Below, piece after piece: positions 46,330 through 60,470 of a DNA stretch of 64,000 bases. Origin of the DNA: Phyllosticta citribraziliensis (taxonomy: Eukaryota). The notes under the pieces are model-generated. The model saw nothing but the letters and a program-made list of their open reading frames with translations. It was not told the origin of the DNA and made no database searches. Positions within the stretch are counted from its first letter, which is position 1. Every line of letters starts with the position of its first letter. Where the stretch lies: positions 124,001 through 188,000 of the forward strand of contig NW_027117349.1 in the NCBI RefSeq assembly GCF_038025025.1, written 5' to 3'. Made by a program: the position numbers and the translations under genes.

Positions 46330-46934
46330 CTACCGTTGACATCTGACCACTCAAATTTGGCCCCTCTATTCGCTCTTCAAGCCGTGTTCACTCATGCTTT
46401 GGAGATTGTCGCCACAGGCCAATGCCTTTTTGTTGCAAACATTGAGGGCTCTCCCAAATTCCGCCAACTTCTTCACGTCATTTGAAGTCACAATTGCCTG
46501 GAGTCGGATCTGACACCAAAGGTTTCTACGACGATCCACGGGAGTGAAGATTCATCCTACGCACATATGCGCCACCGAGGCTGCTGAGCTAAGATGGACT
46601 ATGCAGACTGATTATGTGCATACCCTCAGGCGTACGAAGCCTAGCCCCGTGTGCAGAAACTTGTTTTTTTCAATTCTACCGGGTCTTCTGTCCTTGGCTG
46701 GAACTTCTGTTTGGCTGCAAAAGCAATGGCGCAGAGGCGGAAGCAGTCAGCCATTGACCAGTCGCACCGCTTTTGAGCATCAATTGGCGCTCGACGACTT
46801 TTTGTATGTGTTTGATGCATTTATATCGCTTTGGTCCCTTCCTCTTCCATCTTGATTACAAGATTTTTCAACTTTCACTCTTTACTTCGGTCTTATAACC
46901 TGATATACCCCGTCGAGCGTACCTTGCACAAGTC

Positions 46935-48707
46935 ATGATACCCGGTGTCTTTGATGAGATCATCCTCAACACAAGCGACTACTTCAATGTCAATCAAGGT
47001 AACCTCACCACCTTCGAAATATCGCTACTTTCATCCGGGAAAATTGGATCACCGTGCATGACTGAAATTGCGCCGGAGCAAGTGCAAGATTGGGTGAATG
47101 AGAAACGCCCAGTGTCCGAGGCAAGTGACTGCAATCCATTCACGCGGTCAAATCCACTAAAAGCCCTCAGTCGTCAGCCAGGTTTCCCCAACACACTTCT
47201 GCACACTTGCGCTGTTTGTAGGCATCCACAAGATCTTTCTTGAAATTGCTCAGTGTAATGATGATAAGTAGGATCGGCCCTGCTTCCAGGGAATACATTC
47301 GACCATTTCCATTCGATTCCGCCGCAATGAAAACACTAATTGATAGTCTGTGTCTGCCAGCCAACTTTCTAACTGCCTGCATAAATCATCACAGCATGGT
47401 GATACAAAGTTGCTCGAAAAAAGGCCCACAAGACATTTTTGGTGCGTGGCTCATACCAGTGACTGCCCTTGGCGGTTCTAATCTCTCATTGGCTTTTCCC
47501 AGCCGGACTTTTGAGGACGTTCTTCACCATTACCGCCTGGTCGCACTGTCTTCAAACAAACACCACAACTGTCGTTGTGCTCATTGCAGACGACGGCAAC
47601 ATCAGAGAGAACTTGCTAAGAGCCCTTCAAAGACCGGAGGCGCATATGCTCCATCCACTCTTCATCCCGACTGATCTCTGCCGCAGAGAGTTTCATTATT
47701 TAGAAGAAGGTGTTTACTCTGAGAGAGAATGGCTATTGAATACCGAATGGAACGTAGGACTAAGCGATAACGTGGAAATTTCAGAGGACGAAAAGTTTCT
47801 GAAGAATTTCGAGGAGAATATAAGATCAATACAGAACCATAAGACAGCTCTTGTCTCCTACGAGGCACTTCTTCAGAGACTCGCGCCCATCTTCGAGTCC
47901 CACCTCCCGAGAGCCATGGAAGAACTCCAGGCATGCATTTCGCCCGAAGTACACAAGTTTGGCCCGAATATCAACTTCTGGATTCGCCATTATGCCAACG
48001 CCGGGGACGGCTTACAAAGGGTCTTACAACACTGGATAAAGCGAATAGACTTTTTCATGACGACAGTGAAGTTGCCCCCTTCTTCATATAGCGAGTCAAC
48101 GCCGCTGATGAATGGAAAGTACATCTCCATCCTTTCCAACCGAAACTCCAGGCAAAGCGCGCAGATTGCCAGCGCGGCCAAACGCGACAGCTCATCAATG
48201 AAGTCGCTCGCAGTACTGAGCATCATCTTCGCCCCTCCGTCATGCATTGCGGTAGGCACACTTGGAACGGAATTGCGAAGCCAACTGACCCAACGCCAGA
48301 CGATCGCAAGCATGCCGATGCTCTCCTGGCAGCCCGGTCAATTCTGGATCTTCTGCGCTTACACGGTTCCCATCACCGGCGCCGTCGTCATCATCTGGAT
48401 CTTCTACATGTTCTTCATCAACCAGCGAAACCGAGATTCCGACAATCGCATCGCCGGCAACGAGCCCAAGCCTCGGAGTGTCAAGAACCTTTGGGGCGCT
48501 TTTCAGAAAGGCGAGCGAGCACCGACGCCGAGCGCGGATGATCAGAAGGAGAAGGACATCGCTGACGCATCTAGAGAGACGGGCAATGACTTGGAAAGCG
48601 GAACTCCTGGAGAAGTCCCGCCGCCCGGGGAACCTCAGAGGGTGGATGAGCGCCCCACTCTGAGGCAGATCTTGCATTTGCTCTGGCTCTTCTTGTTCTG
48701 GCAATGA
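46935..48707 (+). CDS. Fungal CorA-like (Mg2+ transporter TM region) domain protein
   Basis: C-terminal pattern IASAAKRDSSSMKSLAVLSIIFAPPSCIA...MPML...FWIFCAYTVPIT (two TM helices) and upstream HMLHPLFIP, typical of expanded fungal CorA-like proteins. Several short introns; exon structure approximate. Confidence 0.7.
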
Positions 48708-48905
48708 ATGTCTGGCATGAATCCTACCTGGTGCTTAGGAGCTTGTCGCTGGCTTGGGAGACCTTTGGACACAGTCAACCGACAAAGCAACAAAAAGGTC
48801 GCGGGGAGCATCCATACGCATTTGTAAGCTGCGTTCAGGAAGATTTCATTCAAGTCCCAATCACTCAAAGTATTCGCATCGCAAAAGGCAAACGGCCATC
48901 GGTTT

Positions 48906-48921
48906 CCCCCCCCCCCCCCCC
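48906..48921. repeat. Poly-C tract (16 nt)
   Basis: Read directly, between two convergent genes. Confidence 0.9.
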
Positions 48922-48930
48922 GCACATCTC

Positions 48931-50804
48931 TCAATTCTTGGTCGGTACCGTGTCATTCTCAGTGCTCGGATGCCTGACCTCTAACCCCTCGATGACCTCG
49001 TCAATCTGCTTCATGTTGGTGTCCTTCATGTGGTACTTGATGATGGGCAGCATGCAAACGGGGCCAAGTGCCACGAGCTACTCAAATCAGCTTTTACTCG
49101 AACTGTTCACGGGCCAAGGGGTATGCGTACAAACCAACTGGAACCGAACAAGAATTCTTTGCTGTATCCTTGGAGGTCGAAAGTGTAGGCACAGATTTGA
49201 CAGAGCGCGTTCAGTAGGCGATACATGGCGCAATATACTGACAGCTGTTGTTTTGTTAGCCATCTCATGTGAAAATCCGGGCCAGGAAAGGGGGTGACAT
49301 ACCTCCGACGTCTCATTCGACAGCGCTCCCATGAACCAAAAAGCGTAGCAGTTGAACGTGGCGTCGCCAAAGCCATACATGGTAAATAGGAAGCACCACC
49401 AGCCGTAGTTTGCGTCGTACACGTCTCGCCGGTCGGCCTCTTCCAGTCCGTACACGGTTTTGTCCATGGCCCAGTAGCCGCCGAGCCACACGGCGTTGAA
49501 CGAAATGAAGACGTACAGCAGGCCCCAAAACGCCCGCCAGCGCCGCTTGCAAGGTAATTTGTCGGTAAAAATGTTCAAAAGCCACGCCGCCGGAATCTGG
49601 ATGACCCCGGAGCAAAAGGTGTTGAGGGCGCGTCCGCGGACAGTGAAGACCGGCGCGTTGAAGCAGTTATTCTGGTAGATGACGTAGTAGTTGACGGCGA
49701 AGAAGTAAGGCCACGCGTACGCGATCCACTTGTGGTCCATGAAGACGTAGTAGCTTGTCTTGACCTCCTCCATGAAGGTCTTTTGCTTTTCGAGGAGGAC
49801 GCGGGAGCCGTCCTCGCGGACCATCCTTTGCCAGGGGTAGAGGGCTAAGCCGAGAGCGGAGCCGAGGAGCATGAGAATCATGAAACCGATGTAAGTCCCG
49901 TCGGTCACGGTGCTCTTGTTATTGTCGCCGGCGTTCCAATTTTGGGCAACGGGGATGGCGGCGCCAGTTGTTAAAGTCAGCAACTGTGGTCATACTACGT
50001 GCGGGGAGCGCTCACCTATCACCACACCGAATTGGAAGATGGACCAGAATATCGAGACGTACATGCCCTTCTTTTCCTCTGACGCGAACGCGGTGATGGC
50101 CGTTCCTTCAGCTACCCACAAAAACGCCGCGCTAAACTTTCAGTCAGTCAACGCACTTCAGAAGGGTTGGTTTTGGCCACATACCTGAGACCACACCAAC
50201 TTGCTCCAAATACCACAAAAGGTACATTTGCGGTGCGATTGTAACACCAGAGCGAGGCCGCGTACTGCCCTGGTCAGTCTGGTTCTAGAATTTTGCGTGG
50301 ACTGGCTTACCGCCGCATAACCGATTCCACCAAAACACAGCGTCTTGCGCAAACCAAAATAATTCAGACAGGCCGGCGCGATGAGATTGAAGACCGTAAA
50401 AACAGTGTAGAGCGAGATGTTGGCTATGTCGCTGAGCCAAGCTGTTTGTTGCCCGGCGCCACCTATTCGGAGTCAGTGATTGGAAAGGGTGTTTCAGTGA
50501 TCTGACCACTCACCAAGAAACGTGATAACATTGTACATGCCCACCGTCAGAAATAAAACACAACCGAGCATGATAGCTTGGACTCGAGGGTGACTGTAAG
50601 CCCACACGGAGACGCCGCAAATAATGTGCGACTTGGGGAGCTGCCCGTCGTGTTAGCCGCGCCAGCTGTCACCAAAAACAAAACATTTGTGAATACCTCC
50701 ACGGCTCCTTTCACATAGCGCGTCTGCTCCTGTGTGAGCTCAGCATGCTTTCCTCCGGCTGCCACAGCATACGTGACGTCAGAAGCCTGTTTTTCCGAAT
50801 CCAT
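48931..50804 (-). CDS. UNC93-like (DUF895) MFS membrane transporter
   Basis: Spliced segments ...VGMYNVIT..LGGAGQQT..., LWVAEGTAITA, FWSIFQFG, YIGFMILMLLG, MVREDGSRV, FTVRGRALN, YGFGDATFNCYAFWFMGALS. Matches fungal UNC93-like proteins. Many introns; stop at 48931-48933. Confidence 0.78.
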
Positions 50805-51400
50805 TGTTGGTGAGGCTCATAGGCGAGGGAAGATTTCCGACGGCGACGAACAAGGCAGGCATTCGCTATGAGCGCTAATGTCTGGCATTCCACTGACAAA
50901 ATAAATAACGGATTTTGACATGCCGTGGTTGTGCTATCGCAAGACTCAGAGGGAACCTGGCTTATCATTGGCCATGCAAGGTTAAGCTTCTCAAAGGCCT
51001 GTTTAGGAAATCGAGATGGGTTACCGGAATTGGCATGAGAGCGGGATCTTTCAGTGGCCAAGAGCCAGGAGATCATTGGGCGAGCCGCACTCGCCGTATG
51101 CGCGAACGAACGGTCCTGTCTGTCGGGCTTGCAGCGATAATGATCGCATTGGGAGCAATCGTGTGATGCGCAGGGTCATTGTTCAACCAGATCGCTTGGG
51201 TCTAGACTTGAGATAAGCAGATGCAGACCAGAGAGACGTTGGAGCTTGACAAGAAACGCCATGTGAAAATGGAGGCACGGCACTGACGATGGGAGATGAG
51301 CGATTTGAAAGAGAGTGCGAGTGCGAGTGCGGGGTCGACCAACTGCCATCTTGAGAACATCACCGCTCTACCGCATCTTCCACTCGACAATACACACAAC

Positions 51401-53576
51401 ATGAAGACGTCTCCGACTCCTGGCCCCCGGACAAACTCTCTTGCTTTCGCCAAAACTGATTGTTTCTCCTGCGCCGCGATTGGCCGGCGCTGCGACCGAC
51501 TGAGGCCACTGTGCCACGCCTGTTTGCAGACTGGGACAGCATGCCGAGGGTTTCCCACGACTTTGTCATGGCAACACAAACGCAGCAATATCTCTCGAGG
51601 CGCAACAAGAAGCCCAAAGAAGAGCGATGTTTCAAGCAAGCAAGGCGCGTCGCCAATATCCGAGTCGCCAATATCAGTTTCGCGAAGAGGCGCGTCGGCG
51701 CAGTCCTTCAAGTTCGTGACCGCGCGCCCTTGGAAACAACAAAGGAAAAGCTCAGCCGCAAAATCGCCTCGTGAAAAAGACTCCTGCTTGCAATCTCCAC
51801 GAAACACAGAAATGCGGTCAGACAATTCACCCATTGATATTGCTACTGTAGAGTCCGATGCTACCACTGGCTCGCCTACCATGAGCAAGCCTCAAGATAA
51901 TGTGCCACTGCAGGCACAGGGTACGCACGCTCCTGTGTTCTTCATTTTACTCATACTGATAGTTTTTTGCAGATGCTCTCTTAAGCTATATGGACTCTGA
52001 AGATGACCACCAGCTTCTTGATCCCGTACAGGTGCCGGAATCTTCTACGTCCATATTTTCCCTTCTTGACAATGACAGCAATCTGTCAAACCAAGGCCTA
52101 CCTGATCTTGACGCATTCACTTGGGATCAAATCCCCACCAGCTTTGGCATTCCTCCCGAACTCGAAGACAGTATTGGATGCTCCTTGTTCAGCCCACAAG
52201 CCACAGTGTTTCCCAACGCTCCTGTCCCCTCACTCTCTACGACACCTCTGTGCAAAAAGCTCTTCTACCCAGAGAAGGTATCGGAGCTCTTGAACTTGTG
52301 TGAGCTTCCCCAAACAGTCTGTTTTTGCGACTGCTTCTAAACCCGTGGCTGCAGATGACAGAGAATTCTGTTCACTTCCATTGACACATGATATCGCCGC
52401 AAACCCCTTTCGTGTTGGCAAAAACACGTCAAGTGGTTCCAAACTGCTGCTCAACGCCATTCTGGCTCTTTCTTCGTACCATTTGAGTCGCATGGAGCCT
52501 ACTTGGCAGGATGACGCGCATAGCTACAAGGAGTCCACTGACAGGCTATTGCAAGAGAATTTTGCCGATGAATCAGATGATCAGCTAAAGTCCAGCCTGC
52601 TTGATGCAGTTCTGACAGTATTCACGCTCGAGGTAAGCTGCTCGACGTCGTGGAGCGCACGAAGCTAACTTGTCCCGCTATAGTCTGCGCAGTCGGCCTT
52701 TGGTTTTTGGCCTGACCGGTTGAAGAAGGCGCTCAAAATACTCAACCGCATGGGTATTGAAAGCCTGCGCAGTTCGTCTCGGCTTCGCGCGCAGACAGCG
52801 ATGCTTCTATGGTAAGCTAATGCTCACAGCAAGAGACCTTGGACTTACCAAGTAGGTGGGACTCCACAATTGCCTTGATATCCCGAAGAGGTCTCATTTT
52901 CCCCTCTTCGTACTTGTCACTGCTTTCCGAGTACGATAAACGCGACGAATGGAGCTTCTTCCAGGTCTCCGGATGTTCTCTGGAGCTAGTGCTATGCTTG
53001 ACCAAACTTGGCCAATTGGCTGTGGAAAAGGAGATTGCGAGCATGATGAATTGGGTGCGATTCGAAGAGAAACCCATTGATGAGATCGAATCGACTTTGG
53101 AGAAGATGAAATTCCCGGACTCGAATTCACCCAACGACTCGGAGGAAGACGTACAACGAGAGCGCGACAACCTGCATTGCACTGAAGCATGGCGAAATGC
53201 TCTCCTTCTCTACTCCAGCAGAGTCTTCAGGTGGGATCGGCAGTCGAAGCCTCCCGCGAAACTTTCTCGCTACGCCAGAATCGTGCTGGACCACACCAAG
53301 TCTTGCCGGAGGACATCGACAGTGCAAAAACAATTGCTTCTGCCCGTATTCTTGGCTGGAGTCGAGCTTTCAGACAGTGAGGCGCGAGGCTTTTGTCAGG
53401 AATACTGTCAATGGTGGAGCCAAAAGTGTCGATACGAAATGTTCTCGACAGTCAGCTACTTGCTGCATGAATTTTGGGAGGAGAAAGACAAGTCCAGAGA
53501 CAGCGCAAGTCTGTGGTGGGGTTCCATGATTGACCGCAAAACACCCACTCTGACCAACCAGTTTCTGTTTGGGTAG
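51401..53576 (+). CDS. Zn(II)2Cys6 transcription factor with a fungal-specific (Fungal_trans_2-like) C-terminal domain
   Basis: DCFSCAAIGRRCDRLRPLCHACLQTGTACRGF..LSW cluster; later LLNAILALS, WDSTIALISR, EAWRNALLLY, QKQLLLPVFLAG. About four introns. Start could be 51296 or 51401. Confidence 0.85.
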
Positions 53577-53802
53577 CGTGCAGGTGATGGACGGCATTTC
53601 GACATTCATCTTCGCCTTACTGATAAGAAAATCAGACCCTGGTAAACCGAGCCAATGGCACGCGAGTTTTGACTTCCCAGATAGGCAACCGAGTTGGCAG
53701 GATATATGCTGGGCCATACCACATCTCTTCGCCCGCCACTAAGTGCCCAACCTTGACGAAAGCTCGCTCCTAGCTTGAAAATCTTACCTTATCAAAGCGA
53801 AT

Positions 53803-54999
53803 ATGGCTGCCCTCGGATTGGCTCACGGCGCGCCGACCTCTTACTCACCCAGCAAGATGAACGGCGCTACGAGTAATGGTCATACAAACGGTACTAGCAA
53901 AGAGTCTCTCCCCAAAGTTCGCGTCTTGCCCAACACCGCATCGGTCGACGAGGTCGTCGATGCGTTGAAGGTCGCCGGAGGCGTGGTAATAAAGAATGCT
54001 GTGCCACATGAGGACCTCGACGTCATTGAGAGTAGGATGCTCCCAGTTCACGTCATTTCAAAATACTGACAAGACCAAAGAGGATCTCAGACCACTCCTC
54101 GAGAAAGATGCGCCTTGGGATGGCGAGTTCTTTCCAAAACAAACCCGCCGCTGCTACGGCCTCATTCCTAATTCCCGGACGTGCGCCGAAAAGGTCGTCA
54201 TGCACCCTCTCTACCAGGCTACGTGCGATAAATTCCTGACGACCAAGAACTGGTTCTGGAGTGGCCACAAGAAAACGTACGCCACAAGTCGGCCACAGAT
54301 CATGAATTCAGTCTGCTTTTCGATCAATCCAGGCGCTCACAAGCAGCCTCTGCACAGAGATGATTGGTGCTACCACGTTGTTAACAAGAAGATTGAAAAG
54401 TACCCCGAAGACCTCCAGCGCGACACAGGTCTTGGCTGGTTCGTAGCAGCCAAAGACGCCACACAAGAGAATGGCTGCACCCGCTTCATCCCAGGTAGCC
54501 ACCTCTGGGAGCACGAACGCGAGCCAGATGACAGTCTGGTCGCATACGCGGAACTGAAGAAGGGCGACGGCTTTATGATGTTCGCGAGTTGCTATCATGG
54601 TTTGTTTGATTCCCACTCTGTTCTCAACCGCACCAGGAAAAGGGGTTAATGATGGGCCAGGCGGCGGCGCAAACAAGACCGAGGACGAAGAGCGTCTACT
54701 TTTCAGCTGCTTCATGACGCGGGGCTGGCTGCGTCAGGAAGAGAACCACTATCTCAACATGAGCTTGGAGACGGCAAGGTCTCTGCCTCTCGAGCTCCAG
54801 AAGATCGCTGGCTACGACTTGAGCGAGCCATTCTTGGGCTGGGTCAATTCGACCAACCCGCGTGTCGTTCTGGATCCGACTATCGAGGCAAGTCCATCAA
54901 CTCTTTTACCCATGACTTTGTTTGTCGAACTAACACTTTGCGTGTGTACAGGGCGGAAAGGACATGGTGAAGAACGAGAACGATGATGAGAAGGAATAG
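53803..54999 (+). CDS. Phytanoyl-CoA dioxygenase (PhyH)-family Fe(II)/2-oxoglutarate dioxygenase
   Basis: Motifs LKVAGGVVIKN, FFPKQTRR, PGAHKQPLHRDD (HxD), NGCTRFIPGSHLW, CYHGGGAN (distal His), RGWLRQEEN. Three introns, the last probably GC-AG. Confidence 0.9.
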
Positions 55000-55540
55000 A
55001 TACTCGGTGATTTCAAAGAATGGAAGGGCGTCTTGCCAACTGGCGTAGAGTTTGTCTAGCTAAATTACCGCCGCGTACGCAGATAACCAAATTGACCTTC
55101 GGCGCAAAGAGATCCGTGCCGTGTTGAAGCTTCCTTGACTCTGAGCAACACGACTCCACGTGATGTGCCCACTGTACAAAGTTGCGGGGAAGGCAACCCC
55201 CTCCCAAATCCAACCATGGCATGCATTCGAACGGATAGGCGACTCATGGAGCTTCCCTGTCCATATCTCGCGGCTATTCTTATCAGCAGCGGGGCAGCAG
55301 CAGAAGACATGCATCTTTTCATCAGTCCAGTACGCGCGGATGCTAGATAACAGTATTCCCTTTATAGGCAGGAAAGGTGGGAGTCTTTGGCCTCTGCGGC
55401 GTGAATATTTTGTGGGTCAAGTGGCTTTTGATGGGGGGGATCACAACGAGTGAGTGAGTGAAAGCACGGTTTAAGTTGCAGCACCAAGCGACCATTTGGA
55501 AAATTTACCCGTGATAATTTCTTGCAGAGCCCAAGCAAAA

Positions 55541-58014
55541 ATGGCCAACGCAGCAGCAACCACAGCGAACAAGCGCATCACAAGCGCCGTAAAGCAAGAT
55601 GCCCCTGAAATCATTGGTTATGTCGAGCCGTGGATAGCGTCGCCGGGGGACATTGTCGACGTCAAGGTATGAACGATCCCTCCGTATCTGTCATCCAATT
55701 CGACGACCGCGAGCCTGACGAACGCTCCCCGTGCACACATAGGTCTCCAGCACCGTCCGTCGCTACCAGTATCAGCTCGTGCGGCTAATCCAGGGGCTCG
55801 ACCACCCAAAGGCGGCGCCGCTGCGCAAAGAAGTCATCGCCGACGTGCTCGTTGGGACATGTACGCAGGGCCGGCCGCAGCGCGCGCATCCGGGATCCTA
55901 CGCCATTGTCAATTCGTGGGGAGGCGAGTCCGTTGTTTCTGCTGGGGCTGGTTTGACTGCTACGGTGTTTGTCCAGCCTTGGCTGCCGTGTGCCGGGCAC
56001 CCGCAGACGCTGCTGTCGACGCTGAATGTCGAGGAGAACACCGGCATCGAGGTCGTCATCCAAGAAAATGGGTGTCTCGCACTGTACGTCGGGACGGGGA
56101 GCGATGTCGAGGTCGTTGAATCGAGCGTCGAGTTGCGACGGTGGCGGTGGGCTCAAGTCAATGTTCAGGTCAAGGGGCGAGATGCGGAGCTGAGCATCAT
56201 ACATCTCAATCGACTGCTGGAGAAGGCTCCCGATCCAGCCCGAGTCCAGAAAAGGCTGAAATCCGACGTTGTGCTCTACTCTCCTGGCTCTCCGCTTCTC
56301 CTCGGTGCTGGTTTCGTCGGCACCAGTTCTGACGCGAAATCTCCAGGCCCGACCAACTTCTTGAACGGCCATTTGGATTCTCCAAGGCTACTGGCAAGCG
56401 GTGGATCTGGAGAGAGCAAGACGCTGGTGAAATTCGACTTTTCCGTCGGCATACCAACAGACAGCATCTTTGACGTCTCGGGCAATGCACGACACGGCCG
56501 CCTGATGAACGCTCCCAGCCGCGCTGTCAAGGGACACGACTGGGACGGGTCAGAGCCTGACTGGACCAAGGCAAAGTTCGGCTACGGCGCCATTCACTTC
56601 CACGAAGACGACCTCGACGATGCGGCATGGGAGACAGACTTTCAGCTGACGATTCCTTCCGGCGCGCTCTCAGGGGCTTACGCGGTGGAAGTGTGGGATC
56701 CAGAAAATCCCAAGCTCCGCGATTCCATCACGTTTTTCGTGCGGCCAAGTCGTCTCCGCGGCACCGCAGCTCAGAAAAAGACAAGAGGAAGCAGCCAACC
56801 GGATGTGGCCATCGTGTTGAGCACATTCACCTATCTAGCCTACGCCAATGAACACATGTACGACGAGACAAAGAGAACCTTCATGGAAGTCCCCGGGGGC
56901 GCCACCATTTCGGAGAGCGAAGACTTTTATCGCATGGTGCGCCGCAGCGACCTCGGTCTGTCAATGTACGATGAGCACCGCGATGGTTCGGGCAGCGTCT
57001 TTTCCAGCTCAAAGCGTCCGATCCTGAATGTCCGCCCAGGATACATCATGTGGGCGTTTGACCGGCCGCGCGAGTTCAGTGCCGACTTGCTAGCCATTGG
57101 ATTCCTCGAAGATAGACTCGGTCGCGGCAACTACGACGTAGTCACTGACCATGACTTACACCTCAGTGGCGTGGAAGCTTTGTCGGGATACAAGTGTGTT
57201 TTGACCGGGTGCCATCCCGAGTACCCATCGTTGGAGTCCTTGAATGCATACTCTGCGTATGCTCGCGGAGGCGGAAGCATCATGTATCTGGGCGGCAATG
57301 GGTTCTACGTGAGTTCCTTGTCAGCAAGCGCAAGAAAGTCCTGGCTGACTTTGAATGTAGTGGGTATCGGTCACTGATCCCAAGCGGCCGCACCGCCTAG
57401 AAGTCCGCCGCGGCGACCAAGGATGTCGTTCATTTGGACTGCCCGCCGGCGAGACGATCCACTCGCTAAACGGCCAGCAAGGCGCCTTGTGGCGCTCGCG
57501 TGGACGGCCCGCGCAGTCGCTCTTTGGCGTCGGCAGTGCCGCATGTGGCACAGGTCCGGGCGTCCCTTATGCACCCACTGCCGCAGCGCTCAAGCCGGAA
57601 TTCTCCTGGCTATGGCACGGGATACCACCCCAGGACCGCAGCCTCATCGGCGTCGAGGGCTTTGGCGGTGGCGCCAGCGGAGACGAGATCGACAGGCTCG
57701 ATTTTGACCTCGGAACGCCCCTGAATGCGGTACTGCTCGGTTCTAGTCTGCGGCATAGTGACAAGTTTGGCTTGTTCAACGAAGAGCAAATGTTCCCAAT
57801 GGTGGATACTCTGGGTCCAGAGTGCGACAGGGTGAGGAGTGACATGGTGTTTTACGAGACGGCGGCAGGTGGATGCGTCTTTAGCGTTGGCAGCATCAAC
57901 TGGTACTCCAGTTTGGCGTATGATGGCTACCGCAACAATTGCGCCCAGGTGACGGAGAACGTGTTGAGAAGATTTGTCGCCTGGGGAAGACAGAAGAGGA
58001 AGTCCCATTTGTGA
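55541..58014 (+). CDS. N,N-dimethylformamidase large (beta) subunit-like protein
   Basis: Motifs IIGYVEPW..PGD.VDVKVS, a LamG-like segment (FLNGHLDSP), NAPSRAVKGHDW, YGAIHFHEDDLDDAAW, TYLAYANE, GLSMYDEH.DGSG, TGCHPEY, MYLGGNGFYW, GDEIDR, GGCVFSVGSI. Introns 55667-55742 and 57309-57360. Confidence 0.87.
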
Positions 58015-58926
58015 AAGAAGATGCGAATGCTTTTTGTCAGACCGGATCATGCTCCCTAGCTATGGATACAATACCAACGTGCACTACAGCAATTTTCTTC
58101 TCTGAGTATACAGTTGAGTGTAAGACGTATCCTTTAGATTCTCAGAATGCAGCTCGCGTGCGTGCTGGACAACTGCAACGGTAAAGTCTTCCTGGCAGGA
58201 ACATGCTCGTCAAAGACATCGTCAAGTTGCCGAAGGACATGCACCGAATGCAAATCCGAATCCGCCATTGCCAGACTGATCGGCTAGCCGAAACACACCA
58301 CCTGTGCATCCGAATACGAAACTCGCTCGGGAACCTGCCTCTTTTTGGACACTCGGCTCCGCAAAACAACTACCGTCCCGTTTGCAAAGCCGATGCGAAC
58401 TCGAGCCGGCGTTTCCATCTGACACTCGGGCGATGGTATAAGAGAACTCCTATGCACATTCAGACGTTCGACGCGAAAGAATGGGCGGGAATCACCTGGT
58501 AGAGTTGGCTCGTTGTTTGTGTTTGGGTTCAAGTGCAATGACCGTAGTGCCGGAAGGTACTTCATCAAGTTCACTGAAAACCGGATCAGCAACAGATGAC
58601 AAATGGCCATGTCAGCTTCTGGAGCCACGATACGTCTGGAAGCTTTGCCAAGGGCTCCGCTATCTTGGCCATCTTGGTAAAAATGGAAGCCAGACGAGTG
58701 GTGACAGTGCCCAAGTGGCAGGGAGTCGTGTCAACGACCGGTACAGGGTAATGCCAACATCAACAGTGCAGCTCGTGCACATTTCCCCGTCTAAACATGG
58801 CAGGCGGAAGGGCGCGATGTTTCGCTTGTTTGAGGGCCGCAGGATGACGAGATTGTTTGAAGAAAGATGAGGCTTTCTGAGTTATCCTTGCCGTGTAGGA
58901 GTGTTCGAAAAGACCCATCTCTATAT

Positions 58927-60470
58927 TCAGGGCGTTGTTGGCGTGCCTGGAATCCATCCGACCTGCTCCACATGCCAGTGTATCCGATGGCGGTAGTCGG
59001 GAGGGAGAAAGTTGTACGCACCCGCCACTACATGCTGAGGCCAACCCTGCATGAACCAGTGGTTTTCGGGGGGGAATGATGTCATGAGGACTCCGAGAAA
59101 AGCAAAGATGAGGAGGGCGAGTGGTTGCTTTTGTTGGATGCAAAGGATGAAGTCGTTCGACGTGCGATACATCCAAGCGAAGATGGACGACATGTACGGA
59201 TTCTGCTTCTTCTCTTCCTGGTTGCCCCAAACGGCAAGATAGGACTGATTTAGACGCATGACTTCCCCCAAGTAGGTCTCAGTGTTGGGATCGTCGGACT
59301 CCGATATGAATATGCGAAAATCTTCCAAATGTCGTCTCCAATCGGTTGGTGGCGTCGGCTCAGAGCCTCCGTAGTCACGCACTCCCCTGTACTTGAACAT
59401 AATTGCCAGTTCCCCGGTTGAAAGCGTGTGGTAGACCAGTCCAATTATGGAGTTTACGCCTCGGAAAAGCGGTAGCCATTCGGCGCTCCCGTGGTCGCCG
59501 AACAGGAGATACTCGCCGGGTCGGGGGCCTTTGGACATGGCGTAAATGGCAATGACGGATACGGAAAGATAGAGGGCCACACAGTTGTCCTCGTTGAGTT
59601 GCGGGAGTAGAGCAGTGACTTGTCGGACGCCAACAGTATAGTGGCGTTCGGCATGCAGAATATAGTGCTCTTTTCGATTCGGTCGGGCGTGGGCAAGGGA
59701 TAGTGCCGCATAGCCCAAAGCAAGATGGAGGAGGAATGGGTGGGAGAAGCCAATCTTGGGCACTAGACTCTTCCAATACTGACTCAATGGTGGAGATCCA
59801 AAGAAGTTGCCGTGCCCTTCTAGGGAGAAATGGTGCATCAGGTCAAGATCGACCAAGTCGTCTTCGGATGTTTCCAATGAAGTTGGAGAAGGGGCATTGC
59901 TCATCAAGGCAGGCGTAGCACCAGCGTTGGGTTGAGGTGTCGGCTGGGGTGTTGGGGCCGCGAAAGCGGGCGAAGGGTTGTGAATCTTTCGAGGCCTGCC
60001 CCTTTTTCTCTTTGGGGGTTCAGCGGTCGATGGGGCAGGTGCAGCTATCACCTGCCCCAGGACGCCGGTAACGTAGTCGCAGCGCAAGTCGTGTTTGGAG
60101 CAGTTGACACATTCGGGTTTTGTTTCATCACACTGTACGAGATCAGTAAAGGTCTTAGGGGACGTACGTTGGCCAAAGAATCGAGAGGCTTTGACATGGG
60201 CACGTGATTGAATGCTCCTGCAAAGACGGGACCTAGCAAGCTGCCCGAAGCAGCGTCCGTTGTTTATCGGAACATGGCCGAGTCTGAGGAATTTATGAAA
60301 CAAGTAAAAGGTACCTTTATCCGCCGCGTTTTGCAGTTTCCACAGCCAGTTCGAGACTTCCGATGTGTCCTCCTGGACAAGAGTTTCTTGGTGACGGCGT
60401 CTTGGCCATCATTCTGGTCAGACATGGCAGCGGGCGAAGCATTGTGGCTGCCACGATCCCAAGGCTCCAT
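58927..60470 (-). CDS. Zn(II)2Cys6 transcription factor (UPC2-like / C6 finger family)
   Basis: RRTHRKSRTGCGNCKTRRIK|CDETKPECVNCSKHDLRCDY across intron 60133-60314; AT-hook-like KRKRGRPRK; DLDLMHHF, GFSHPFLLH, WLPLFRGV, HWFMQGWP. Confidence 0.87.

Follow-up and report, generated by a model that had tools for sequence, protein, structure and literature searches.

The window considered here is a stretch of 64,000 nucleotides from the fungus Phyllosticta citribraziliensis (contig NW_027117349.1, positions 124,001 to 188,000 of the forward strand), a citrus endophyte according to the part of the source available (PMC6859488). Within its positions 48931-58014, four intact and open genes, delineated by coordinate splicing of the window, encode an UNC93-like transporter, a Zn2Cys6/Fungal_trans_2 regulator, a PhyH-family Fe(II)/2-oxoglutarate (2OG) dioxygenase and a hydrolase resembling the large subunit of N,N-dimethylformamidase (DMFase). 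These genes probably constitute a nitrogen-catabolic (scavenging) module, whatever the order in which the two enzymes act. Such a reading is built on features observed directly, namely the anatomy of the genes, the residues kept in the enzymes, the linkage of the genes in other genomes, an excess of GATA sites in the promoters and the occurrence of hydrolase ends resembling a peroxisomal targeting signal of type 1 (PTS1).

Architecture of the cluster

Evidence on splicing is provided by contigs from three public runs (X1-X3), whose RNA origin is a guess, and in which predicted introns of the transporter, regulator and PhyH genes are skipped. The features of the cluster are as follows, HGATAR designating the GATA-type sites discussed below:

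48931..50804, minus strand: UNC93-like transporter of the major facilitator superfamily (MFS), 501 amino acids, 7 introns, no internal stop; four introns are among the skips listed in X1-X3
50805..51295: divergent transporter/regulator promoter, 4 HGATAR sites (50934, 50962, 51135, 51211)
51296..53576, plus strand: Zn2Cys6 and Fungal_trans_2 transcription factor, 692 amino acids, 4 introns, a later Met start being possible (Pfam, splicing)
53577..53802: PhyH promoter region, 3 HGATAR sites (53621, 53679, 53789)
53803..54999, plus strand: PhyH-family Fe(II)/2OG dioxygenase, 340 amino acids, 3 introns (one of them GC-AG), 100% identical to P0195 of P. citribraziliensis
54888-54951, plus strand: GC-AG intron of the PhyH gene, its 64-nt skip listed in all three runs
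55000..55540: hydrolase promoter region, 4 HGATAR sites (55081, 55280, 55345, 55512), devoid of a small-subunit gene
55541..58014, plus strand: DMFase large-subunit-like Fe amidohydrolase, 781 amino acids, 2 introns, 100% identical to P0173 of P. citribraziliensis
58003..58011, plus strand: PTS1-like peroxisomal signal SHL of the hydrolase (C-terminal residues)

Intergenic gaps of 491, 226 and 541 bp separate the transporter from the regulator, the regulator from the PhyH gene, and the PhyH gene from the hydrolase, respectively. A first-pass annotation of the same DNA had recognized the four genes and their orientations, all of which are open and oriented as it described, and had put the gaps at about 600, 225 and 540 bp; the last two values agree with ours, whereas the first matches the later Met of the regulator. 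It had also reported the absence of a backbone gene of the polyketide synthase (PKS), nonribosomal peptide synthetase (NRPS) or terpene type, and the Pfam scan yielded no PKS, NRPS or terpene domain in 21 + 30 open reading frame (ORF) pieces of the window, the second set being made of 27 of the 41 window ORFs of at least 170 amino acids plus 3 shorter ORFs. The genes flanking the cluster are housekeeping or unrelated genes.

The DMFase-like hydrolase

The hydrolase matches PF20254 (DMFA2_C) with a score of 295 bits against a cut-off of 27, and aligns over its full length with both the large subunit of the Paracoccus DMFase (E 2.6e-101) and N-acetyl-(R)-beta-phenylalanine acylase (E 3.3e-98). 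Its AlphaFold2 model (pLDDT 88.7) is superposed by Foldseek on 6lvb (TM 0.85, 31% identity) and on 8huy (TM 0.81, 33% identity), so that both marks of a large subunit, the PF20254 domain and the three-domain fold combining Ig, pentraxin and ThuA-like domains, occur in the protein. In DMFase, the Fe ligands are Y399, Y440 and E521, the catalytic residues are H519, N547 and E657, and F693 forms a constriction of the pocket (PMC7686228). In the alignment, these residues correspond to Y409, Y451, E535, H533, N561, E673 and F709 of the hydrolase, respectively (the catalytic residues H519, N547 and E657 being paired with H533, N561 and E673). As judged from sequence, the Fe ligands are invariant in 56/56 and 103/103 rows; H533 and N561 are kept in 103/103, and E673 as well as a Phe or Tyr at position 709 in 100 of the 103 long top matches, i.e., those of at least 640 amino acids among the 120 top matches, some of which are presumed fungal. 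The position of Y656 of DMFase is occupied by Asp, Asp672 in the window protein, in 100 of these 103 matches, and this residue might bind a charged substrate.

A profile built from 7 small-subunit sequences, one of them confirmed against 6lvb_B (E 1.8e-15), detected no small (alpha) subunit in the window (best match E 1.4), nor fused to any comparison protein; it matches in 15 of the 77 prokaryotic DMFase-like loci, the other 62 having no such gene nearby. Because the two-subunit test thus finds no small-subunit gene in the window, the hydrolase is not called a DMFase; it is predicted to work like an iron amidohydrolase of the DMFase family, without being DMFase itself. In favour of the first-pass annotation, which called the enzyme DMFase-like, every metal and catalytic residue of DMFase is kept. 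The small-subunit query matched DMFase entries only, to the exclusion of the 8HUY acylase entries, and the acylase is therefore possibly a precedent for a subunit-free form.

[quoted passage not shown] Small-subunit profile matches were also noticed inside long ORFs of two loci (L075, 6039-10256; L118, 6307-7950), which suggests that the small subunit is fused there, either with other domains or with the large one. One Vicinamibacterales genome harbors at least 5 DMFase-like genes (L084, L095, L096, L116, L150).

The SHL end of the hydrolase is read as peroxisomal on the basis of the PTS1 consensus. PTS1-like ends are found as SHL, SRL or ARL in Phyllosticta, AKL in Pseudocercospora and PKL in Sphaerulina. 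They terminate 33 of the 160 full-ended homologues but just 1 of 302 other proteins; 32 of the 33 come from Phyllosticta, Pseudocercospora and the Sphaerulina cluster, with five spellings in all and many sequences near-identical. Such an end is recurrent in Dothideomycetes, and the hydrolase is probably peroxisomal. Intact relatives abound in filamentous fungi: of 8000 proteins scored, 971 reach E <= 1e-10, and the 120 relatives listed are fungal wherever they carry a name.

The PhyH dioxygenase

The dioxygenase matches PhyH (PF05721) with 82 bits against a cut-off of 22. In an alignment of 16 rows (P0121 numbering, identical to that of the window protein), the triad H168-x-D170...H249 is invariant and R261, presumably the 2OG-binding Arg, nearly invariant. 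No PTS1-like signal occurs on the PhyH protein. Its nearest solved relatives are NvfE (E 2.7e-51), SwnH1 (1.5e-33) and SwnH2 (5.2e-27).

Among members of this family, to which KanJ is assumed to belong, several enzymes offer precedents for the chemistry of the window protein, by analogy and with no functional assignment attached. According to the parts of the sources available, the desaturation catalyzed by SwnH1 and SwnH2 yields an iminium from an amine (10.1101/2024.09.26.615303), KanJ performs a deamination that turns an amine into a ketone (PMC5533434), and demethylation is known among other PF05721 members (PMC12709175).

In this PhyH clade, an N-terminal LGLAH..PTSY motif is conserved ahead of a variable linker (window positions 53803-53860; P0124, P0129, P0132, P0558, P0559). 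The PhyH proteins P0558, P0559 and P0560 of Phaeomoniella, Pleurostoma and Capronia coronata, fungi of different classes, are 86-89% identical to one another, the hydrolases of Phaeomoniella and Pleurostoma being 64% identical. This high identity might reflect either a transfer between classes or a strong constraint, and the module itself may have moved between fungal classes; the transfer is a mere lead, because the trees (FastTree with Shimodaira-Hasegawa-like support and no topology test) have neither a trusted root nor a one-clade test.

Linkage of the genes in other fungi

Linkage was judged from the adjacency of accessions or locus tags, from shared contigs and from metagenome DNA. The hydrolase and PhyH accessions are consecutive in all six Phyllosticta species listed, and in the 3/3 Phyllosticta species whose regulator was looked up, the uninterrupted series extends to regulator, PhyH and hydrolase, the transporter lying outside this check. 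Beyond Phyllosticta, a tally by hand covered 25 species with both enzymes listed from one assembly, excluding Paecilomyces lecythidis (different strains) and an Elasticomyces record with the same sequences as E. sideris. Among the listed copies, which represent part of each genome's paralogues, hydrolase and PhyH are within 5 genes of each other in 5 species, share a contig in 3 and are not co-located in 17. The near pairs are adjacent in Sphaerulina musiva (KAL9533067/68), 2 genes apart in Capronia epimyces and Rhinocladiella mackenziei, 4 apart in Pseudocercospora fuligena and 5 apart in P. eumusae, while the shared contigs of Phaeomoniella (252 kb) and Pleurostoma (891 kb), both inferred from identical contig sizes, and of P. 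fijiensis (11.9 Mb) leave the pair at an uninformative distance. True orthologues of the window PhyH occur on the contig of the hydrolase in 6 of 8 species, plus one 28-kb contig (P0040/P0557), whereas the Capronia/Rhinocladiella pair represents another PhyH clade together with another hydrolase clade.

Gene order varies, being tandem in the window, divergent in the metagenome locus L008 and spaced elsewhere, and passive synteny is therefore excluded as a source of the linkage. It might still be argued that the genes are chance neighbours preserved by Phyllosticta synteny and devoid of a shared function, as would suit the 17 species with no co-location among their listed copies, and the absence of the enzyme pair from the 12 long metagenome loci and 77 prokaryotic loci described below. 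This explanation is largely refuted and keeps but a very slight probability: with an assumed 5-20 PhyH-like genes per 11,000 genes, 0.11-0.45 near-pairs are expected by chance in 25 species against 5 seen, an excess inflated by kinship, and the probability (P) that two or more of 10 independent lineages show such a pair is 0.001-0.014; the varied gene orders and the excess of GATA sites also speak against it. The linkage of hydrolase and PhyH is thus real and beyond chance, but patchy. The fungal co-occurrence anticipated by the first-pass annotation recurs in other orders with varied gene order, although the four genes do not form a fixed unit. In terms of the linkage expected from a nitrogen cluster, the pair is linked in 6/6 Phyllosticta species and, among the 25 others, near in 5 and on one contig in 3, with the regulator lying beside PhyH in 6/12 long metagenome loci.

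A core unit with exchangeable partners

The 74 metagenome PhyH loci include 12 distinct ones that contain introns and span 4 kb or more. In 6 of these 12 (L002, L003, L006, L012, L018, L022), PhyH has a homologue of the window regulator no farther than 6 kb away; three of the six (L006, L012, L018) share an assembly prefix and do not represent independent sampling. The hydrolase is found in none of the 12 long loci and is present in L008 (3.2 kb), where it is divergent from PhyH. The layouts below include the domains found by a Pfam scan of 140 of the 311 ORFs from 13 fungal loci:

L002: permease, DUF1349, regulator, PhyH
L003: PhyH, permease, regulator
L004: DAO, second PhyH, short-chain dehydrogenase/reductase (SDR), PhyH
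L006: regulator, permease, PhyH; an SDR 8 kb off
L010, 662-10953: second PhyH, NmrA, other Zn2Cys6, permease, PhyH; no backbone gene in the scanned ORFs
L018, 3245-13628: amidase, UNC93, cupin, PhyH, regulator; an amidase-signature enzyme in the place of the DMFase-like enzyme

The permeases of the loci match best, below the cut-off, TIGR00907 (amino acid permease), a type which presumably transports gamma-aminobutyric acid or choline. In the 4 loci with such a permease (L002, L003, L006, L010), no DMFase-like gene occurs in the available DNA and no amidase among the scanned ORFs, whereas the 2 loci with an UNC93 transporter each possess an amide hydrolase, DMFase-like in the window and an amidase (PF01425) in L018. 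Moreover, in Exophiala sideris, a homologue of the regulator adjoins the hydrolase, with no listed PhyH nearby. From the locus layouts and this adjacency, regulator, PhyH and transporter emerge as the core, the type of transporter being variable, and the amide hydrolase as an exchangeable add-on.

Since the named solved relatives of the window PhyH (NvfE, SwnH1/H2, SptF, PrhA) are all biosynthetic tailoring enzymes, the genes could alternatively tailor a product whose backbone gene lies elsewhere. The families found in L010, with two PhyH proteins, an NmrA protein and an amine permease, even match the swainsonine accessory genes, as far as the available part of the source goes. This alternative is nevertheless very improbable: no backbone domain occurs in the scanned ORFs of the window or of the fungal loci, the second PhyH of L010 is EasH/PrhA-like and far from SwnH, and the set of solved structures is biased toward biosynthetic enzymes.

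In bacteria, the co-occurrence of PhyH with a DMFase-beta protein, proposed by the first-pass annotation as a check, was not encountered, PhyH being found in 0/77 prokaryotic DMFase-like loci. The neighbours recurring there (36 of 45 family representatives scanned) are generic, e.g., SDR, ATP-binding cassette transporters and class-III aminotransferase, and offer no clue to the substrate.

Regulator, transporter and putative nitrogen control

In the regulator, Fungal_trans_2 is above its cut-off, and Zn_clus lies just below (19.1 against 21 bits) with all six Cys kept. The transporter, too, is below the Pfam cut-off for UNC-93 (16 against 22.9 bits, in one exon); its neighbours in the ESM Atlas carry UNC-93/MFS_1 on 16-49% of members, and it is 29-33% identical to the UNC-93 gene adjoining PhyH in L018. 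Ngt1, a carrier of N-acetylglucosamine, belongs to the UNC-93 family.

The three intergenic regions of the cluster, 1258 bp altogether, contain 11 HGATAR sites against 2.77 +/- 1.58 in dinucleotide shuffles, a number reached by 0 of 1000 shuffles; elsewhere in the window, 15.6 kb of non-ORF DNA carry them at a background density of 1.67 per kb. In the hxn regulon of Aspergillus nidulans, the AreA consensus reads HGATAR, according to the part of the source available (PMC8478523), and the excess of AreA-type sites in the cluster promoters therefore fits nitrogen use. No shared CGG-type motif for the regulator was found in 12 promoter regions, where no 6-8-mer rises above the shuffle maximum.

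Proposed mechanism and its alternatives

From these data we infer the regulation, cellular location, chemistry, order of steps and substrate class of the module as follows. Two controls would operate on it, the global GATA factor AreA/NIT2 and the cluster's own Zn2Cys6 regulator. When preferred nitrogen becomes scarce, the UNC93-like carrier would bring an uncharged amine with an N-formyl (or small N-acyl) group into the cell. Probably inside the peroxisome, the Tyr-Tyr-Glu Fe(III) site of the DMFase-like enzyme would split this amide, yielding the amine in free form together with formate (or a small acid). Oxidation of the carbon beside the nitrogen by the Fe/2OG dioxygenase would next produce an imine or iminium, whose hydrolysis would supply the fungus with assimilable ammonia or a smaller amine. 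The core of the module, made of regulator, PhyH and transporter, would be an amine-using unit, and the hydrolase a feeder extending its use to the acylated form. This order, with amide hydrolysis first and oxidative deamination or dealkylation by PhyH next, is a tentative one, to be held at somewhat less than an even chance; it is slightly favoured because the amine-permease loci show no amide hydrolase in the available DNA and both UNC93 loci have one, a pattern to be expected of a hydrolase that supplies the core with a free amine to oxidize. It is possible, though rather doubtful, that the module corresponds to an undescribed fungal route whereby nitrogen is drawn from a natural N-formyl or N-acyl amine by means of a single-chain, peroxisomal, eukaryotic iron amidohydrolase of the 2-Tyr-1-Glu type.

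The reverse order, put forward by the first-pass annotation, is nearly as likely as hydrolysis first, and hence somewhat unlikely in itself: PhyH would act first, turning an amine, N-methylated or cyclic, by oxidation into an N-formyl compound or a lactam, which the DMFase-like enzyme would hydrolyze. It agrees with the preference of DMFase, which cleaves formamides, N-methylformamide best by kcat/Km, and C-substituted amides hardly (PMC7686228), with the F693-type constriction kept in the fungal proteins and missing from the acylase 8huy, and with the demethylations known among PF05721 members, as far as documented in the part of the source available (PMC12709175); the linkage and the GATA sites apply equally to both orders. 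It is at odds with the 5 of 6 loci in which PhyH and regulator have no hydrolase nearby, with the two oxidations that the conversion of N-CH3 into N-CHO would need before formaldehyde is lost, and with the absence of a dehydrogenase gene from the cluster of the window. Nitrogen use, as originally proposed, is thus backed by the GATA excess and the linkage, but the gene pattern fits hydrolysis before oxidation at least as well as the order proposed at first.

A looser association is improbable, though less so than biosynthetic tailoring: in a small regulon or detoxification system, one inducer, such as a plant or microbial amide or alkaloid, would switch on enzymes that act on different compounds or that inactivate the inducer without feeding the fungus. 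Partners are indeed freely swapped among the loci (amidase, cupin, SDR, DAO, NmrA, DUF1349), in E. sideris, where no PhyH is listed nearby, the hydrolase adjoins the regulator, and a peroxisomal hydrolase beside a signal-less PhyH would perhaps place the two in different compartments. However, hydrolase and PhyH are linked once more in a second, separate clade of each enzyme, and an importer-type transporter together with GATA sites suits nutrition better than efflux.

Several observations weigh against the nitrogen-catabolic module with hydrolysis as its first step. The large subunit of the Paracoccus DMFase is inactive alone (PMC7686228), and yet the window has no small-subunit gene. The closest solved relative of the PhyH, NvfE, is named an endoperoxide isomerase rather than an amine oxidase. 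The contrast between the two transporter types concerns 6 loci, one of just 5 kb, and an unlinked hydrolase may lie elsewhere in these genomes. The listed copies of the enzymes are not co-located in 17/25 species outside Phyllosticta, and the PTS1-like end is absent in Phaeomoniella, Pleurostoma, Capronia epimyces, Rhinocladiella and the P. citrichinensis model P0001. As for the GATA sites, the test on HGATAR was picked after a k-mer screen that GATAAG led, below the shuffle maximum; in the related loci, the excess of HGATAR is weak, with 34 against 22.3 expected in 9 regions (5/400 shuffles), and the rest of these loci display similar densities of 1.5-8.1 per kb.

Gene models and neighbouring genes

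The depth of the contigs in X1-X3 cannot rank the genes by expression. No hydrolase intron occurs among the contig joints listed, 10 further joints lying outside the listing, and the pieces listed run unspliced into the hydrolase introns; this is evidence in neither direction on expression. One X1 contig, 55741-60036, is unspliced across hydrolase intron 2 and continues into a convergent second Zn2Cys6 gene; it could be antisense read-through, pre-mRNA or DNA.

One further feature belongs to the transporter:

49965..50015, minus strand: apparent non-canonical GT..TG intron of 51 nt (X1 contig arithmetic, one contig only)

The second record of X1 skips 257 nt over part of the transporter, and four canonical introns account for 206 nt of them, leaving 51 nt; the X1 piece restarts at 49963, which is compatible only with a TG acceptor. 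This joint is absent from the listed joints and was deduced by arithmetic, for which a control on the regulator balances (202 = 202); the same arithmetic rules out a canonical transporter intron of 42 nt. Just past the transporter stop, at 48900-48920, lies a C homopolymer that is one letter shorter in X1.

A spliced gene at 46900-48800 (plus strand) adjoins the transporter and displays a weak, sub-cut-off match to CorA. This CorA-like gene, the second Zn2Cys6 gene, a cyclin gene and an MFS gene at 62.7 kb were all excluded from the cluster, because none has a homologue in the 74 PhyH loci. A 2-hydroxyacid dehydrogenase at 37.5-39.4 kb was ruled out as a formate dehydrogenase, and corresponds to phosphoglycerate dehydrogenase.

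Comparison with known systems

The layout of the cluster is ordinary for fungal catabolic clusters of the hxn type. In the hxn nicotinate-utilisation regulon of Aspergillus nidulans, the regulator HxnR is a C2H2 factor and the dioxygenase HxnY is not of the PhyH family. According to the part of the account available, hxn similarly combines transporters, a specific regulator, oxidative enzymes and then ammonium-releasing hydrolases, is AreA-dependent with HGATAR sites, and has been rearranged and split across Pezizomycotina (PMC8478523). It differs by its 11 genes, against 4 here, and by its hydrolases, HxnN (amidase PF01425) and HxnM (CE4-like) in the part available, instead of PF20254 (PMC8478523). 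SwnH1/SwnH2 of swainsonine biosynthesis and NvfE are the nearest solved PhyH relatives, and the desaturation of an amine to an iminium by the former, as described in the available part of the source, provides a parallel; they are nonetheless distant and biosynthetic, and no SwnK-like backbone gene occurs at the window cluster.

N-acetyl-(R)-beta-phenylalanine acylase (PDB 8HUY/8I59/8I5A) is as close to the hydrolase as DMFase is, with the E value, TM score and identity given above, but lacks the equivalent of F693, a Phe kept by the fungal enzyme. The DMFase of Paracoccus sp. DMF (PDB 6LVB; PMC7686228) shares with it the three-domain large subunit, the Fe ligands, the catalytic His, Asn and Glu and the F693 equivalent; the window hydrolase departs from it by the absence of a small-subunit gene in the window, by Asp672 in place of Y656, by its PTS1-like end, its eukaryotic origin and its PhyH neighbour. 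Full-text literature searches, with subscription journals and supplements outside their coverage, retrieved no study of a fungal DMFase-family member, no eukaryotic, apparently single-chain member and no instance of this enzyme combination, in line with the first-pass remark that no described fungal pathway displays it.

DMFase possesses an unusual iron site, and the origin of its folds is not yet apparent according to those who described it (PMC7686228). N,N-dimethylformamide (DMF), the substrate after which the family is named, is a man-made solvent, not known in nature according to the part of the source available (10.1101/2019.12.17.879908), and the cluster offers a way toward the natural role of the family. 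Because it is compact and has its own regulator and nitrogen-control sites, this role becomes experimentally testable. The cluster could show whether such an enzyme functions without a small subunit, with a bearing on biocatalysis and on the clean-up of DMF and other amides. Should a natural N-formyl or N-acyl amine route be true, its substrate would be the first natural one that a genetic pathway has tied to the DMFase family.

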